From the IMG/VR virus record IMGVR_UViG_2698536536_000002: DNA of 24,758 bases, one strand, 5' to 3'. The first letter of the stretch is position 1. Each line of letters starts with the position of its first letter. Shown here piece after piece: positions 4,752-16,645 of the stretch. Position numbers and translations under genes: made by a program. A model generated the notes under the pieces. That model saw nothing but the letters and a program-made list of their open reading frames with translations, had not been told where the DNA came from and did not search any database. The stretch comes from a virus (lineage: Duplodnaviria; Heunggongvirae; Uroviricota; Caudoviricetes).

Positions 4752-4809
4752 AAAAACGGCGGCAGAGCAGTCACGGAGTAAAACTGATACCGCCAAACGT
4801 CACCAGAAA
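4752..4809 (-). ncRNA. dicF: DicF-like small regulatory RNA (ftsZ-targeting antisense sRNA)
   Basis: Minus-strand sequence UUUCUGGUGACGUUUGGCGGUAUCAGUUUUACUCCGUGACUGCUCUGCCGCCGUUUUU (reverse complement of 4752-4809) matches the remembered DicF sequence. It ends in GC-rich sequence plus a U-run and sits between the YdfB/C-like ORF and dicB, as in the Qin dicB operon. Exact ends are approximate. Confidence 0.55.
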
Positions 4810-9140: not shown

Positions 9141-10538
9141 TTATGCTTCATGTTGCTTTTTGAGATCGCTTCTAGCATAGCTCCACTCAATAATGTTGTC
9201 GGGTCGTTGCTGATCGAAAAGGATACGGGATTCAATACCATTACCTAAAAAGCTGGTATTCCCATCTACGTAAGAAGCTATCCCTTGTGAACCAACACGA
9301 AGAATATTTTCTAATGGCTGCTTTGTTCTTGCTGCATCGCTAAGGAGATATAAACCCGGGTACGTTTTGTTAGCACGGTGAAAAAAAAGTTCATTGTCAA
9401 AACACATGACGATGATTATTTGTCCCGACATGAGATCGGAGAGCATTTCAGTTGGCAGATGCAAACTCATAAATGGTCGAGACAAAGGGTCAAAGAATGA
9501 ATCATTTATATTCACAACAGGGCTTTTTATACCGAGACTATCCATCCATCCATTGAAGGCAACAAAGCCCATTTCAGAATCACGGTACATACCTAAGAAC
9601 AAACATTCATCAATAGTATCAATTGCCCAATTTTTTCCTCCGCGAATAATCTCCCACATTTTAACTAAGCGGTGGGTATAAAATTCAGACGGATGATCTA
9701 TCTCATTGATTTTAACTTTAGACTGATGAAAGTTGTCAAAGCCCTCGCCAGTATTAATCGCCTCCAGAACATTCATGCCACGAATGATTTGCCTTTTTAT
9801 GCGATTAAATTGCTTAACATCATTATCAGGCATATTGTTAATGAAGTTTTCTTCAAAGTGCGGACATTCTGAGATAACAGAAAATTCAGCAGCTTCATAA
9901 AGCTCATTATTCTTTTCACCTGTTTTAACTTCCACGAGCTGGAAGCCATCCAGTAGATTAAAGGTGACTAAATCTCCCACATGAACAAATGTGCTCATGT
10001 CAGAGACAATCGCTACGGAGTGTTTGTCCTGGTTGATAAGATCGGCTGCGACCATAGAATCAATTATGTTATCTTCTGATAGATTGTCATTGCTTGCATT
10101 AATAGGTAAACGCCGCAAACTAGAGTGTTCTTCATCAAGAATGCTCCAAATTATTGAGTCAATACAACGGCGAAGAATAAGAATTTCAAATTTTTTTAAA
10201 CTTATTTCATCAATACACTTTTCTTTATTTTCTTTATCCTTGTTTCGATGGTGCTCTTTTTTTTCAGTTTCCAATCTTTTTATATCTCTCAGCCGAATAA
10301 TAATCTCAAAAGATATGATTTTTTGTGAGTCTTTCCAATTTTTGAGACAGGTTTCATACTCTGCAAGAAAATCCTCATCATTGGAAGGTAGTTCTTGAAT
10401 TGGATTCCCTCCCCTTATCATTTTGGCAAGTGCATGCATTAAAGATACATAATGAGGTGATAAAATTGTCCAAAACTTCCTAAACGGTTTGTACTTTTCA
10501 AGAAAAGTTGACTCATCAGTATAATTCATCATAACCAA
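9141..10538 (-). CDS. Hypothetical 465-aa protein, possible PD-(D/E)xK-type nuclease; downstream partner of the AbiH-like gene
   Basis: Long AT-rich ORF with GAGG RBS. Central motif …AIVSDMSTFVHVGDLVTFNLLDGFQLVEVKTGEK… fits the D…(D/E)xK pattern of restriction-like nucleases (inference only). Co-oriented 83 bp downstream of the AbiH-like gene. Confidence 0.7.
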   Translation of the reverse strand: MVMMNYTDESTFLEKYKPFRKFWTILSPHYVSLMHALAKMIRGGNPIQELPSNDEDFLAEYETCLKNWKDSQKIISFEIIIRLRDIKRLETEKKEHHRNKDKENKEKCIDEISLKKFEILILRRCIDSIIWSILDEEHSSLRRLPINASNDNLSEDNIIDSMVAADLINQDKHSVAIVSDMSTFVHVGDLVTFNLLDGFQLVEVKTGEKNNELYEAAEFSVISECPHFEENFINNMPDNDVKQFNRIKRQIIRGMNVLEAINTGEGFDNFHQSKVKINEIDHPSEFYTHRLVKMWEIIRGGKNWAIDTIDECLFLGMYRDSEMGFVAFNGWMDSLGIKSPVVNINDSFFDPLSRPFMSLHLPTEMLSDLMSGQIIIVMCFDNELFFHRANKTYPGLYLLSDAARTKQPLENILRVGSQGIASYVDGNTSFLGNGIESRILFDQQRPDNIIEWSYARSDLKKQHEA

Positions 10539-10621
10539 ACCTCATTCCTCTTATCTATTTTCCTCAAGGTATAAAATACCAGCCTTTTTTACATAATTAT
10601 AGTTATAATATGAAGTCTCAT

Positions 10622-11491
10622 TCAGATATCTTCATACTGTACGTAAGAAATATTTGAGCCTCTGATACCATAATCTTCTAAACTGCCTGATTTTTTCTCA
10701 CCTCTATATAAAGCAACTATCCATCGAGCATTTTCTTGGATGCTTTTATTTATTTCAGTAAAGTATTCACCGTCAACTTCGGCGAGCGAGTGGCCTAAAA
10801 CGATGACCTCGTCCACATTTTTAAGCGATGAGAAAAAAACGTTTTCTTCTTTAATTATGTCTTCGCTGGGCTTGAATGTATTACCGAAGTATTCGTTTAT
10901 TCTGTCGTATGCCTCTGCTATTCTTGTATCTTGATCCGGTCCTATATATGGATTTAGTGACTTTTCCACCCTAAAACTATGACCAAGTATGAGATCGTCA
11001 TCGTAACTACAATTGCCGTGAATATGTATGATTTGCTCGTCTGGAACGGCATAGATCTGCTGCAAGGTATTTGTATAATTAAATGAAAAATAGATGCTTT
11101 CTCTTGGTATGGGCGGGATGTATTGCTTAGGATTGTAAGCATCGGCTATGTTAATCCCTTTAACCCAATCAGCGAATTGCTCCTTCAAACGAGCTGACAG
11201 CATTTGTGTGATTTTATTTACTTCATATTGGTAATCGTGATGATAAGCATCGCTCCAATCATCGGTATTGTATGAAGCCAAAAATATCTCACTGTTTTGA
11301 AGGATAAGCTCATAATCAATTTCACCTAAAGCATTTTCTAACTCATTCCACTCGTCCCCAGCAGGAATGTATTCTTCTATCGCGTCATATAGATCTTGGT
11401 CATTTTTTTCTACATACGACTTAAAGTGCTTGTATCCTGTTGGTAAGCCATGACGCATGTCAAATCCATTTCCTATTATGTAAAGCCTCAT
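10622..11491 (-). CDS. AbiH-like abortive-infection family protein
   Basis: From the ATG at 11491 (AAGGGA RBS) the product begins MRLYIIGNGFDMRHGLPTGYKHF…, which matches the N-terminal signature I associate with AbiH-family proteins. AT-rich codon usage. The track's longer ORF begins at 11542. Confidence 0.6.
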   Translation of the reverse strand: MRLYIIGNGFDMRHGLPTGYKHFKSYVEKNDQDLYDAIEEYIPAGDEWNELENALGEIDYELILQNSEIFLASYNTDDWSDAYHHDYQYEVNKITQMLSARLKEQFADWVKGINIADAYNPKQYIPPIPRESIYFSFNYTNTLQQIYAVPDEQIIHIHGNCSYDDDLILGHSFRVEKSLNPYIGPDQDTRIAEAYDRINEYFGNTFKPSEDIIKEENVFFSSLKNVDEVIVLGHSLAEVDGEYFTEINKSIQENARWIVALYRGEKKSGSLEDYGIRGSNISYVQYEDI

Positions 11492-11807
11492 TGTTTTTCC
11501 CTTAGTCGAATTGTATAAAAATACTAACATGGCCTGCTCCACGTTGACTACTATCCCCTCCTTTGAGTAATGCCTTCATCAGATGTAACAACATTTGCGA
11601 GCTTCCACAGTTCGCTCAAAGCGGACTAGAAGGTTAGCTTGCGTCGGACTTGGCGTATTTAAAGAAGTGCTGGTGGAGACTGGTTGTTGTGTTCCATTTC
11701 TACAGAACAAAATCACAGAAACTATACCCAATAGTTATATTGAATCAATGATGAGACAGCCTCATATTTATCAGGACTGGTGTACGTCCAATACAGGAGG
11801 TTGTCGT

Positions 11808-11897
11808 GCTGGTTCTCAAATGTGCGCTAGCTATTGCGGCTGTAATGGCAATTTATTGTCTTGCTGTTGTTCTTACGGATCGCCTTTCTGATTGATT
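11808..11897 (+). CDS. Candidate 29-aa hydrophobic peptide (type I toxin-like / degenerate hok-like)
   Basis: GTG at 11808 sits 7 nt after a perfect AGGAGG (11795-11800). Product MLVLKCALAIAAVMAIYCLAVVLTDRLSD is a single predicted TM helix. Below the ORF-track size cutoff. Confidence 0.3.
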
Positions 11898-12106
11898 TTA
11901 TATTGGCGAGGTGACGTGAGTTAAGTAGAATTGCTGCGGGTGCTTGAGGCTATCTGCCTCAGGCATGAACACCAAAGGCAGATAGAGAAAAGCCCCAGTT
12001 AACATTACGCGTCCTGCAAGACGCTTAACATTAATCTGAGGCCAATTTCATGCTAGACACATGTAGGTTAGCCTCTTACGTGCCGAAAGGCAAGGAGAAG
12101 CAGGCT

Positions 12107-12262
12107 ATGAAGCAGCAAAAGGCGATGTTAATCGCCCTGATCGTCATCTGTTTAACCGTCATAGTGACGGCACTGGTAACGAGGAAAGACCTCTGCGAGG
12201 TACGAATCCGAACCGGCCAGACGGAGGTCGCTGTCTTCACAGCTTACGAACCTGAGGAGTAA
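12107..12262 (+). CDS. hokD: Hok/Gef-family type I toxin (HokD/RelF-like)
   Basis: 51-aa product MKQQKAMLIALIVICLTVIVTALVTRKDLCEVRIRTGQTEVAVFTAYEPEE matches the remembered HokD/RelF sequence. AAGGAG RBS at 12092-12097. Flanked by a 10-bp-stem hairpin upstream (11950-11985) and a 9-bp hairpin (12270-12291) plus terminator downstream. Confidence 0.85.
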   Translation: MKQQKAMLIALIVICLTVIVTALVTRKDLCEVRIRTGQTEVAVFTAYEPEE

Positions 12263-12330
12263 GAGACCAGGCGAGGGAGAAATCCCTCGCCACCTCTGAT
12301 GTGTCAGGCATCCTCAATGCACCCGCACTT

Positions 12331-12354
12331 AACCCGCTTCGGCGGGTTTATTTT
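12331..12354 (+). terminator. Rho-independent terminator after hok
   Basis: AACCCGC-TTCG-GCGGGTT stem-loop followed by TATTTT. Confidence 0.5.
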
Positions 12355-12720
12355 ATCTGTAAATATTTTTATAAAAATAATGCCCACACACAGCATAAAA
12401 CAAAAAGTATCACAGATAAAAAAGGAGCGTAATGTGCAGATTTGTTGTTTTCCATATTTACTCACTTTAACATAATCAAAATTGATATGGTTGTTGTTTT
12501 GGTGGTTTCAAACGAGATGTTATGGTGATCTGGTAAAATTGCATAACATTAAAATTTAATTTATCTAATCGCTTTTAATAATAAGCGTTGTGTTTATCCC
12601 AACAATCTGTTGTTTGATTTTTATTCCATTAATGTAGGGGCTTTACACTGGAACCAGTTTATTTATACTTTATACGCCAGCCTGAACAACTGGCACCTGC
12701 TGCGCCAGCAGAGACAACCG

Positions 12721-12999
12721 ATGGCGCACGATACCAAATTACACAATTCTGATGATTCTGCCGTCTTTGCCAGCAGGTGCGGACGGCGTTTTCATGCATT
12801 CAAATCGGACTGGTTCCAGCATCCACCATGCACTGAAGAGCAGGCTGAATGGATAATTCAGTGTTACCGCAGGCGCGGATACGAGGTTAAAAAAGCCCTT
12901 AGCCTCGACTACCGTCACTGGATAATCTCAGTCAGATTGCCTTACTCCGAACGCCCACCGCGTCCGTCCCGTACATTCCAGCAACGCATCTGGAGGTAA
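12721..12999 (+). CDS. Hypothetical protein (about 92 aa; start uncertain)
   Basis: ORF ends 1 nt before the GTG start of the downstream DUF968 gene, with that gene's GGAGG RBS inside its 3' end. The ATG at 12721 lacks a clear RBS; the track ORF begins at a TTG at 12610. Occupies the position of rem in Qin. Confidence 0.4.
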   Translation: MAHDTKLHNSDDSAVFASRCGRRFHAFKSDWFQHPPCTEEQAEWIIQCYRRRGYEVKKALSLDYRHWIISVRLPYSERPPRPSRTFQQRIWR

Positions 13000-15387: not shown

Positions 15388-15463
15388 ATTCTGCTCCCGG
15401 CCCTTTAGCTCAGTGGTGAGAGCGAGCGACTCATAATCGCCAGGTCGCTGGTTCAAATCCAGC
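15388..15463 (+). tRNA. tRNA with CAU anticodon (tRNA-Ile2/ileZ-like, or Met)
   Basis: 76-nt cloverleaf drawn by hand: acceptor GGCCCTT/AAGGGCC, D-stem GCTC/GAGC, anticodon loop CTCATAA, T-stem GCTGG/CCAGC, T-loop TTCAAAT, 3' ACCA. Confidence 0.85.
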
Positions 15464-15564
15464 AAGGGCCACCATCACAAACCGCCATTAGCTTATCAGG
15501 AAGAGCAGACGACACGATAACAGGGTTGTTGGTGCGGGGGCGGGTCCCCGATGGCGGTCCATTA

Positions 15565-15641
15565 TCGGTATTCAGCGTTGTTAGCTCAGCCGGACAGAGC
15601 AATTGCCTTCTAAGCAATCGGTCACTGGTTCGAATCCAGTA
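15565..15641 (+). tRNA. tRNA-Arg (UCU anticodon; argN/argO/argU-like)
   Basis: 77-nt cloverleaf: acceptor GCGTTGT/ACAGCGC (one G-U), anticodon stem ATTGC/GCAAT with loop CTTCTAA, T-stem ACTGG/CCAGT, T-loop TTCGAAT, 3' GCCA. Confidence 0.85.
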
Positions 15642-15761
15642 CAGCGCGCCATATTCATTCTTCCAGATTCCTTCCGGCAGAGCCTTATACTGGAATATAC
15701 CTGGCTCAGGATATTGTTGAAAACATAATATGTTTGTCAAAAATAAAAGTTCTGTTAAGTA

Positions 15762-16115: not shown

Positions 16116-16645
16116 ATACATATCTGGATTATCACCTGTTACGGTAAAAAGTGATTGCTTACTGTTTTTGTGAATGGCATTGCAGCAGCCGGATAATGTC
16201 AGTGCTGGCTGACGGTGTGCTGGTGGCGGGTGTGGTGGTTGCTTTCCCGTTGCTGAAAAAGAAAACGCCAGACTGTTAGCCGGGTATCAGTTAGCGGGAG
16301 AAATTTTTAAATACTTCACAATTCAGGCGGTTGACTGTTCTCTGGTTTGCGGGGAGTTTGTTAAAAGAAACTGGCATGGTGAATCCCCCTGTGCGGAGGG
16401 GCAATCAGCGAGTAGGTATATGGGATAATCGCGGATTCAGGTGCTGGTACTGAATTCACCGGGAGGCACCCGGCACCATGCACTTAAATAGATTCTCTCC
16501 ACATTATGGATATTCTTTCAGAATATCCCACGCAGACTTTGTGTAAATGTTAACAAATGTGCGTTTTATTTGATCTGATTCGCTGTTTGAGCGTCCAAAA
16601 CAACGGTATATATAATCCTTTACTATATGACATATGTGAGAAAAA

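Follow-up and report, generated by a model that had tools for sequence, protein, structure and literature searches.

In plasmid R1, the hok/mok/sok (parB) cassette takes part in post-segregational killing, and its control combines a tac/fbi clamp, the coupling of hok to the leader frame mok, an antisense RNA (Sok) directed at the mok initiation region, and processing of the mRNA 3′ end (PMC9841398). Relatives of this cassette are found in Escherichia coli and its phages: hokW-mokW-sokW in the Stx2 phage 933W, the chromosomal, non-prophage locus hokC (gef)/mokC/sokC of K-12, which has an IS186 interruption nearby, and hokD (relF), the third gene of relB-relE-hokD in the K-12 prophage Qin. The hokW-sokW genes of the Sakai prophage Sp5 (VT2-Sakai) have been experimentally characterized as a type I toxin-antitoxin (TA) system that aids phage release, with a toxic hokW under the control of Sok (PMC8621323). 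Here we describe the hok locus of the Caudoviricetes record IMGVR_UViG_2698536536_000002 of IMG/VR, a stretch of 24,758 nucleotides (nt) hereafter called the window, and an open reading frame (ORF) of 29 amino acids (aa) located upstream of hok. The hok locus is of an ordinary, already known kind, and the small ORF genuinely belongs to a family of conserved small proteins that has been catalogued but not characterised functionally. We consider it likely that the region consists of a complete hok/mok/sok cassette together with an independent small membrane-protein gene that is not related to Hok.

The hok cassette of the window and its known relatives

The Hok toxin placed in this region by the initial annotation of the window was confirmed by the ORF list, by the PGAP annotation of an identical chromosome and by a match to the Pfam family HOK_GEF (PF01848) with 81.6 bits (cut-off, 22). 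The protein keeps residues C15, T25-R26-K27 and L29-C30-E31 (TRK.LCE motif) in an alignment with HokW, HokC and R1 Hok; it is 82% identical to HokC and 43% identical to R1 Hok. A Shine-Dalgarno (SD) sequence, AAGGAG, precedes the gene at positions 12092-12097. Expression of the HokD coding sequence has been reported to be toxic (bioRxiv 10.1101/2025.08.07.668861). Codon 47 of hok (window 12245-12247), a TAC (Tyr) codon within GCUUACGAAC, forms a UACG motif of the kind at which A-to-I editing of hok mRNAs by TadA has been reported, and the same preprint describes recoding to Cys at the corresponding codon of hokD (bioRxiv 10.1101/2025.08.07.668861).

Analysis of the region 5′ of the toxin gene revealed a match to the Rfam family RF01794, oriented as a hok mRNA leader, that spans positions 11938-12112 and the full model (1-157) with 119.9 bits (gathering score, 59; E = 3.6e-27). 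The 5′ end of the hok mRNA was put at about 11938 because the promoter-like sequence TTGGCG/TAGAAT ends 6 nt before position 1 of this model (Table 1). The −10 hexamer TAGAAT is kept in 933W and in O157 strain 86-24, and reads TAGTAT in strain D9. The strong mRNA structure described around hok in the initial annotation was also borne out, since both hairpins and the terminator are present and the 415-nt RNA extending from 11938 to the terminator has a minimum free energy (MFE) of −178 kcal/mol (z −9.0) that was equalled by none of 100 shuffled sequences. A 5′-3′ clamp was predicted in both the MFE and the centroid structures, in which tac (11938-11949, GGGUGCUUGAGG) pairs with fbi (12313-12325, CCUCAAUGCACCC). 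Each of the two hairpins was more stable than nearly all its shuffled versions (0-1 of 200 being as stable). In addition, the stems carry compensatory changes in related copies, an A-U to G-C replacement in the 5′ stem of strain 86-24 and substitutions in the 9-bp 3′ stem of 933W. By analogy, the 3′ stem-loop would be the counterpart of the R1 hairpin that guards the 3′ end of the processed (truncated) hok mRNA (PMC9841398).

The leader frame mok is preceded by a GAGG SD sequence (12038-12041), starts 19 codons before hok and matches PHROG 251, ‘MokW-like host killing’ (7.7e-33). The start codons of mok and hok are 57 nt apart in the window, and mok is therefore an in-frame extension of hok. 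In R1, where the mok ATG occupies positions 116-118 and G176 is the last nucleotide of the hok start codon (PMC9841398), the start codons are 58 nt apart and mok is therefore out of frame. The initial annotation had correctly recognised that the frame extends upstream of hok from 12050, where an ATG opens a 70-aa ORF, and regarded the arrangement as unlike a classical mok. This is valid in comparison with plasmid R1 only: in-frame mok frames of 69-70 codons are annotated in mokC/hokC of K-12, mokW/hokW of 933W and ECs_1520 of Sakai, and an in-frame mok is no peculiarity of the window. In hokC, mok is likewise an in-frame 19-codon extension whose start is overlapped by Sok.

On the opposite strand, a Sok RNA complementary to the mok initiation region could be mapped from the sokW misc_RNA annotated in 933W. 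Its predicted fold shows a free 15-nt 5′ tail, a long hairpin and a U-run (−28.7 kcal/mol, z −5.1). A putative promoter was read upstream of it; 6 nt separate the end of its −10 hexamer from position 12058, to which the 5′ end of Sok was mapped, and its match to the consensus is too weak for detection in the promoter scan. We take its layout to resemble that of the R1 sok promoter. At the sequence level, the window thus appears to encode an antisense RNA with a promoter of its own.

Comparison with the locus of 933W revealed 94% nucleotide identity over window positions 11918-12334 (417 nt), and the two cassettes share the in-frame 70-codon mok, the position of Sok and the layout of tac/fbi and hairpins. 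Upstream of the mRNA start, homology extends for only 20 nt and leaves out the −35 region, which differs in 933W, as does the terminator; moreover, hokW occupies another place in the phage genome, adjoining a YgiW/YdeI-like gene, and has no upstream small ORF. The relB-relE-hokD operon of K-12 lies in the same prophage slot as the hok gene of the window, upstream of rem/ydfU/Q, and its Hok protein and 3′ untranslated region are identical to those of the window or nearly so (98.4% identity over 12093-12349). By contrast, the K-12 locus has neither the small ORF nor the upstream part of the cassette (hok promoter, tac, mok and Sok). Since homology to K-12 begins only at 12093, 14 nt before the hok ATG, with relE before it, the K-12 operon is a derived state in which relBE replaced everything upstream of the hok SD sequence, and the arrangement of the window is presumably the intact, ancestral one. 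The initial annotation had described the K-12 relBEF operon correctly, and had noted that no relBE-like genes precede hok here; indeed, relBE is absent from the window, the genes upstream being on the other strand, and the alignment breakpoint lies at 12093. As regards hok, these results confirm textbook biology, and show clearly, in addition, that the K-12 relBE-hokD operon is a truncated derivative of an intact prophage hok/sok locus.

A small hydrophobic ORF upstream of the hok promoter

The ORF located upstream of the hok promoter had been set at 11808-11897 in the initial annotation; it actually begins with a GTG codon at 11806 and ends at 11895, and encodes the peptide MLVLKCALAIAAVMAIYCLAVVLTDRLSD. 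The AGGAGG sequence described in front of it is present, with a spacer of 5 nt instead of 7. A putative sigma-70 promoter was read further upstream, from which transcription would start near position 11775. Its hexamers are kept despite a diverged spacer in loci L006 and L012 (TTGAAG...CATATT) and in the Shigella virulence plasmid pINV (TTGAGT...CATATT). The stop codon lies 8 nt before the −35 hexamer of hok and 43 nt before the deduced 5′ end of its mRNA, outside the Rfam match, so that the ORF is not part of the hok mRNA leader, a possibility that the initial annotation had named.

The predicted peptide has one transmembrane (TM) helix and a high grand average of hydropathy (GRAVY, 1.72), and matched no Pfam, NCBIfam or PHROG profile. 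Its proposed resemblance to the TM core of Hok was not reproduced: BLASTP returned no alignment with Hok at E ≤ 100, and comparison of a nine-sequence alignment of the family with a Hok alignment gave an hhalign probability of 0.3%. With no Hok similarity detectable, and no match to HOK_GEF, the suggestion that the ORF is a degenerate hok duplicate was abandoned. Homologues of the 40-aa in-frame translation were limited to Escherichia and Shigella entries named ‘hypothetical’ or ‘membrane protein’. The 29-aa type is mostly unannotated in the RefSeq records examined, and one allele has a MULTISPECIES RefSeq protein. E. coli B (REL606 and BL21(DE3)) carries the allele MLVLKCTLAIVAVMAIYCLVIVLMDHLSD (ACT39199.1, ACT43394.1). 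We rejected the idea that the ORF is what remains of the C-terminal part of some longer gene, given that the longer database entries are upstream extensions made by gene callers, with unrelated N-termini. A helix that could sequester the SD sequence (11755-11763/11797-11805) was also discarded, as it is not conserved and has its 5′ arm within the promoter spacer.

The ORF is intact in all 99 other homologous loci analysed, 19 of them fetched by DNA or peptide similarity and 80 from IMG/VR. Frame, SD sequence and stop codon are kept in ten diverged E. coli or phage loci, in pINV and in six species-representative genomes; a GGAG-containing SD sequence was present in each of the 80 IMG/VR loci, as it was before the ORF of pINV and that of a 34-aa type described below. 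The ratio of non-synonymous to synonymous polymorphism (pN/pS) among 11 distinct nucleotide alleles of the 29-aa type was 0.30 in frame vs 0.53 and 1.86 in the other frames, and within the 34-aa type it was 0.21 in frame vs 1.40 and 4.19 out of frame, values obtained from only 87-102 nt of related alleles. The ORFs of the window and pINV are 77.7% identical in DNA sequence, with 10 synonymous and 8 non-synonymous differences and a change of start codon from GTG to ATG.

The comparison of the two peptide types led to a similar picture. DNA similarity between them is undetectable before position 11915. Nevertheless, in an ungapped alignment fixed at the stop codons, 15 of 28 residues are common to the 34-aa form and the most frequent 29-aa allele, an identity reached by none of 200,000 composition-preserving shuffles. 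The allele of the window, with Thr in place of Met at position 24, shares 14 of 28. Nucleotide identity between the types follows the order expected of coding sequence, codon position 2 > 1 > 3. Altogether, the sequence data indicate that the 29-aa ORF is very probably a real, conserved small membrane-protein gene.

The ORF is preceded by a block of about 190 nt (11612-11805) that is approximately 90-99% conserved in many prophages. This block contains the putative promoter of the small ORF, its RNA folds are at chance level, and it shows no credible ORF, the 98-aa frame being broken by a 14-nt deletion in loci L005 and L011. Its identification with a known prophage Pas small RNA (sRNA) was rejected, since Pas genes are found near lysis genes.

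A 34-aa paralogue with ribosome footprints in enterohaemorrhagic E. coli

The 34-aa form (MSDDISLAMEGALAVIAVVGVYCLVVFLMDRLGN) corresponds to XECs145, or ECs_5710 (WP_001278450.1), and was found in O157:H7, O104:H4 and several plasmids in the same slot upstream of hokD; in the current annotation of the Sakai prophage Sp6, ECs_5710 directly precedes mok/hok. Like the 29-aa ORF, it has a strong SD sequence, encodes one TM helix and is separated from the ATG of hokD by about 245 nt, and both types share the core motif ALA[IV]..V..[IV]YCL.V..LMDR, which ends at the stop codon. The 29-aa ORF therefore fits an XECs145/ECs_5710-like family in length, TM helix, core, SD sequence and synteny. The 34-aa form starts with ATG, is longer by five acidic residues at its N-terminus and has a PGAP annotation, which the 29-aa type lacks in the records examined.

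XECs145 was included in a ribosome-profiling catalogue of intergenic small genes of the enterohaemorrhagic E. coli (EHEC) strain Sakai, with a predicted inner-membrane location and one TM helix (PMC5597208). Its reads per kilobase per million (RPKM) in LB were 79 for RNA and 346 for footprints, with a ribosome coverage value (RCV) of 4.35 and a coverage of 0.99; the corresponding values were 121, 150, 1.14 and 0.84 in brain heart infusion (BHI), and 73, 1.1, 0.01 and 0.37 in BHI with combined stress (PMC5597208). No functional study of either the 29-aa or the 34-aa form was found in the literature, nor was any ribosome profiling found for the 29-aa type.

Two further observations were made in loci of the 34-aa type. 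A 22-nt palindromic hairpin follows the stop codon of the 34-aa ORF, before the hok promoter (L025 1998-2019; also in L016, L024 and L026). Its arms, CGATATGGG and CCCATATCG, surround AATT and pair perfectly over 9 bp (z −2.9); it is not an obvious terminator, as it has no U-run, and it might be a protein-binding or processing site. In EHEC, another hydrophobic ORF of 27 aa (MIWPEAFAITGVAIAIDFLVYVICRWG) is located just upstream of the 34-aa ORF (L025 1766-1849). Its ATG overlaps the stop codon of a DUF551 gene (ATGA), and it may encode a second unannotated small membrane peptide.

Distribution and linkage with hok

Of 5,426 complete E. coli genomes, 4,795 carry the hok block. At least a partial match to the 395 bp that extend from AbiH to the hok mRNA start and hold the 29-aa ORF was obtained in 3,097 genomes, with a coverage of at least 80% in about 1,390; as a rough estimate, the 29-aa type is present in about one third of complete E. 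coli genomes. The 34-aa type occurs in 732 of the 5,426, with a median of three copies, and EHEC genomes carry about three each. A scan of species-representative genomes, made with a narrow degenerate pattern by which more distant relatives were possibly missed, retrieved only Escherichia, Shigella and a few metagenome-assembled bins labelled as other genera, which are probably contaminated.

The start of hok lies 211-213 nt after the stop codon of the ORF in all 75 IMG/VR loci that extend far enough. On the other hand, the linkage is not obligatory in either direction, since 933W has hok without the ORF and the ORF persists without hok in loci L003 and L018, which represent a prophage remnant found in E. 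coli TK3887 and Shigella flexneri, and in pINV. In this latter group, made up of virulence plasmids from enteroinvasive E. coli and from each of the four Shigella species, nothing of hok is left but its promoter and a decayed leader of about 50 nt, 294 bp before the icsP ATG. The whole ORF is covered in all 136 plasmid records in the 60-80% identity band, with the same allele in the 37 listed.

In S. flexneri plasmid pWR501 (L014 2402-2900, homologous to window 11706-11990), an intact ORF with an ATG start precedes the icsP (sopA) start by 294 bp and is followed by the relic hok promoter TTGGCG...TAGAAT. We take this copy to lie within the long upstream region that has been studied for the control of icsP by H-NS and VirB. 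The presence of an ORF in this much-studied region may matter for the reading of promoter-truncation experiments.

Proposed function and alternative explanations

The dynamics of the hok pathway can be drawn by analogy with R1 and hokW. A weak promoter would give rise to a stable hok mRNA of about 415 nt, in which tac-fbi pairing would keep the mok ribosome-binding site closed. Slow 3′ trimming would open the RNA, and the short-lived Sok would then pair with the exposed mok initiation region and lead to decay. Once the supply of Sok stops, mok would be translated, and with it the coupled hok, resulting in a membrane-depolarising peptide. As for the small gene, positions 11740-11895 would constitute a unit of its own, with promoter, AGGAGG, GTG start and 29 codons, a prophage accessory gene (moron) whose expression in the lysogen would yield a single-pass inner-membrane peptide. 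This peptide most likely acts in the membrane on its own. A role as a potent toxin is unlikely, because the paralogue is translated in growing cells, the SD sequence is open and no antitoxin RNA is visible.

It has to be noted that several points weigh against a complete, working cassette accompanied by an independent gene. The promoter of the small ORF is a weak match, below the threshold of the consensus scan, and the terminator scan detected no terminator between the small ORF and hok, so that the ORF could be carried on a 5′-extended hok transcript and may be functionally tied to hok. The selection statistics come from short and related sequences, and the ribosome profiling refers to the 34-aa paralogue, which is multi-copy in EHEC with the consequent mapping ambiguity, and not to the 29-aa type. 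A function of the peptide as modulator of a host or phage membrane protein is only a guess. Finally, an intact hok sequence would not in itself be proof of activity, and a preprint summarises earlier work in which chromosomal hok loci of K-12, strain C and ECOR24 gave no post-segregational killing (bioRxiv 10.1101/2025.08.07.668861).

Other explanations were considered. That the cassette is an inactive relic hitch-hiking in the prophage, like several chromosomal hok loci of K-12, is rather improbable: chromosomal hokA, hokB and hokC gave no post-segregational killing in the work summarised in the preprint, and K-12 hokD lost its regulatory region, but in the window all the regulatory elements are present and fold as expected, the stems of different copies vary by compensatory changes, hokW-sokW, with its 94% identity, is functional and the HokD peptide is toxic when expressed. 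We regard as most improbable that the 29 codons are open only by chance within a conserved stretch of non-coding DNA, for instance a regulatory site or the region upstream of the hok promoter. It is short and unremarkable in AT/GC content, it mostly escapes annotation (apart from the allele with a MULTISPECIES protein), and the neighbouring 190 nt are conserved without an ORF; a chance frame is nevertheless hard to reconcile with a synonymous excess specific to the frame in two independent allele sets, peptide conservation between types without DNA similarity, the conserved SD sequence and start codon (including the GTG-to-ATG switch in pINV), the ribosome footprints on the paralogue and the lack of any disrupted copy in 99 loci.

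It is unlikely that the small ORF works together with hok, its transcription or translation feeding the hok promoter or leader, or its peptide modulating Hok in the manner of an antiholin or immunity protein. Such a partnership would agree with the tight synteny in the 75 IMG/VR loci, with the presence of two peptide types without DNA similarity in the same slot upstream of the same HokD, and with a stop codon placed 8 nt before the hok −35 hexamer without an intervening terminator. However, synteny may reflect only the shared descent of one prophage module, the ORF remains intact where hok was lost (pINV, with its decayed leader, and L003/L018), and the functional hokW-sokW of 933W/Sp5 has no such ORF. 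We give little credence to a stronger version, in which the 29/34-aa family is a dedicated prophage partner of Hok that makes hokD a three-component locus, the pINV copy having been co-opted into icsP control. If it were true, the peptide would tune Hok pore formation or the timing of lysis, or expression of the ORF would set the activity of the abutting hok promoter, and in pINV both the ORF and the relic hok promoter would have been co-opted upstream of a virulence protease gene.

The initial annotation had also proposed that the ORF encodes a second small membrane toxin. The first part of this proposal stands, as a small membrane protein is very probable. The toxin part, understood as a double-toxin module in which a second type I membrane toxin is controlled by an unrecognised antisense or nearby sRNA, is very unlikely. 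The short type I toxins Fst/Ldr, Ibs and ShoB have a size, a hydrophobic helix and a polar C-terminal tail similar to those of the peptide, which is short, very hydrophobic, preceded by a strong SD sequence and adjacent to a known type I TA system. In addition, an antisense RNA spanning the small ORF could originate from a promoter-like site on the minus strand (TTAACT-18 nt-TAAAAT, 11924 to 11895), and in the 34-aa type a minus-strand site of this kind overlaps the start codon. Nevertheless, the −10 hexamer of the minus-strand site is not kept in most alleles (ATTTCA instead of ATTTTA), the folds of both strands are at chance level (z −1.5 for the mRNA and +0.35 for the antisense strand), and a permissive Rfam search of the region returned only a spurious snoRNA match. 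Unlike the toxins mentioned, the peptide matches neither Hok nor any profile in Pfam, NCBIfam or PHROG, and its translation appears to be free, with an open SD sequence and an apparently constitutive promoter in place of the tightly closed mRNAs of type I toxins. Furthermore, the 34-aa paralogue is well translated in growing EHEC (see the RCV in LB), and on pINV and in L003/L018 the ORF stands alone, without an obvious partner. An independent, non-Hok membrane-protein gene next to a complete hok/mok/sok cassette is thus the reading that we favour, and the small gene represents a cheap and well-defined target for small-protein work.

Prophage context

The window corresponds to a Qin-like lambdoid prophage at rspB and is found there as a whole in E. 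coli strain MDR_56; APEC O2-211 and B strains are further carriers of this prophage. The 1.2 kb around the hok locus match at least 20 complete E. coli chromosomes with 100% identity. The gene order in the MDR_56 prophage is integrase, xis, exo, ydfD, dicB, (DicF), ydfA, a repressor pair, YdaT, a replisome organiser, DUF977, a hypothetical gene and AbiH (both on the opposite strand), hokD, a hypothetical gene, DUF968 (ydfU-like), RusA, Q, tRNAs, lysis genes and terminase. This prophage is an intact version of the element that K-12 harbours as the cryptic prophage Qin.

Table 1. Coordinates of the features of the window discussed in the text
Feature	Position	Strand	Basis
Putative sigma-70 promoter of the small ORF, TTGAAT-17 nt-CATATT	11740-11768	plus	read from sequence
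Shine-Dalgarno sequence of the small ORF, AGGAGG	11795-11800	plus	5 nt before GTG
29-aa small hydrophobic protein gene, GTG start	11806-11895 (including stop)	plus	ORF list
hok promoter, TTGGCG-17 nt-TAGAAT	11903-11931	plus	consensus scan
Full-length hok (mok-hok) mRNA, about 415 nt	11938-12354	plus	Rfam, fold, 933W homology; ends predicted
10-bp 5′ stem-loop (11950-11959/11976-11985)	11950-11985	plus	−18.6 kcal/mol, z −4.3
Sok antisense RNA, complementary to the mok initiation region	11988-12058	minus	mapped from annotated sokW misc_RNA of 933W
mok, 70-codon leader ORF in the frame of hok	12050-12262	plus	ATG 12050, ORF list
Putative Sok promoter, TTGCCT-17 nt-TAACCT	12065-12093	minus	read from sequence and 933W sokW position
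hok toxin gene (HokD, 51 aa, WP_000813254.1)	12107-12262	plus	PGAP on identical chromosome
9-bp GC-rich 3′ stem-loop (12270-12278/12283-12291)	12270-12291	plus	−19.7 kcal/mol, z −5.7
Intrinsic terminator of hok mRNA (stem 12331-12348 and T-run)	12331-12354	plus	scan and fold
92-aa hypothetical protein in the rem slot	12721-12999		PGAP; PHROG 1212 (unknown function), 6.5e-36
DicF	4757-4808	minus	Rfam, 72.5 bits
Two tRNAs downstream of the Q gene	15399-15648	plus	Rfam
Prophage sRNA STnc100	16345-16535	plus	Rfam, 113 bits

The neighbours upstream of the small ORF and hok are, according to the PGAP annotation of an identical chromosome, an AbiH-family abortive-infection gene (10622-11530) and, upstream of it, a 463-aa hypothetical gene. 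Both are encoded on the minus strand (window 9141-11542), antiparallel, between the replication module and the small ORF/hok region, and they look like an inserted defence moron; the AbiH junction is common to only 347 genomes, vs 4,795 for the hok block. Among the RNA genes of the window, STnc100 has been reported to be structurally related to the PasD sRNAs (bioRxiv 10.64898/2026.05.13.724894). Downstream of hok, positions 12610-12999 correspond to the slot that is occupied by rem in K-12 and many other prophages, and in which the window carries a different small gene.

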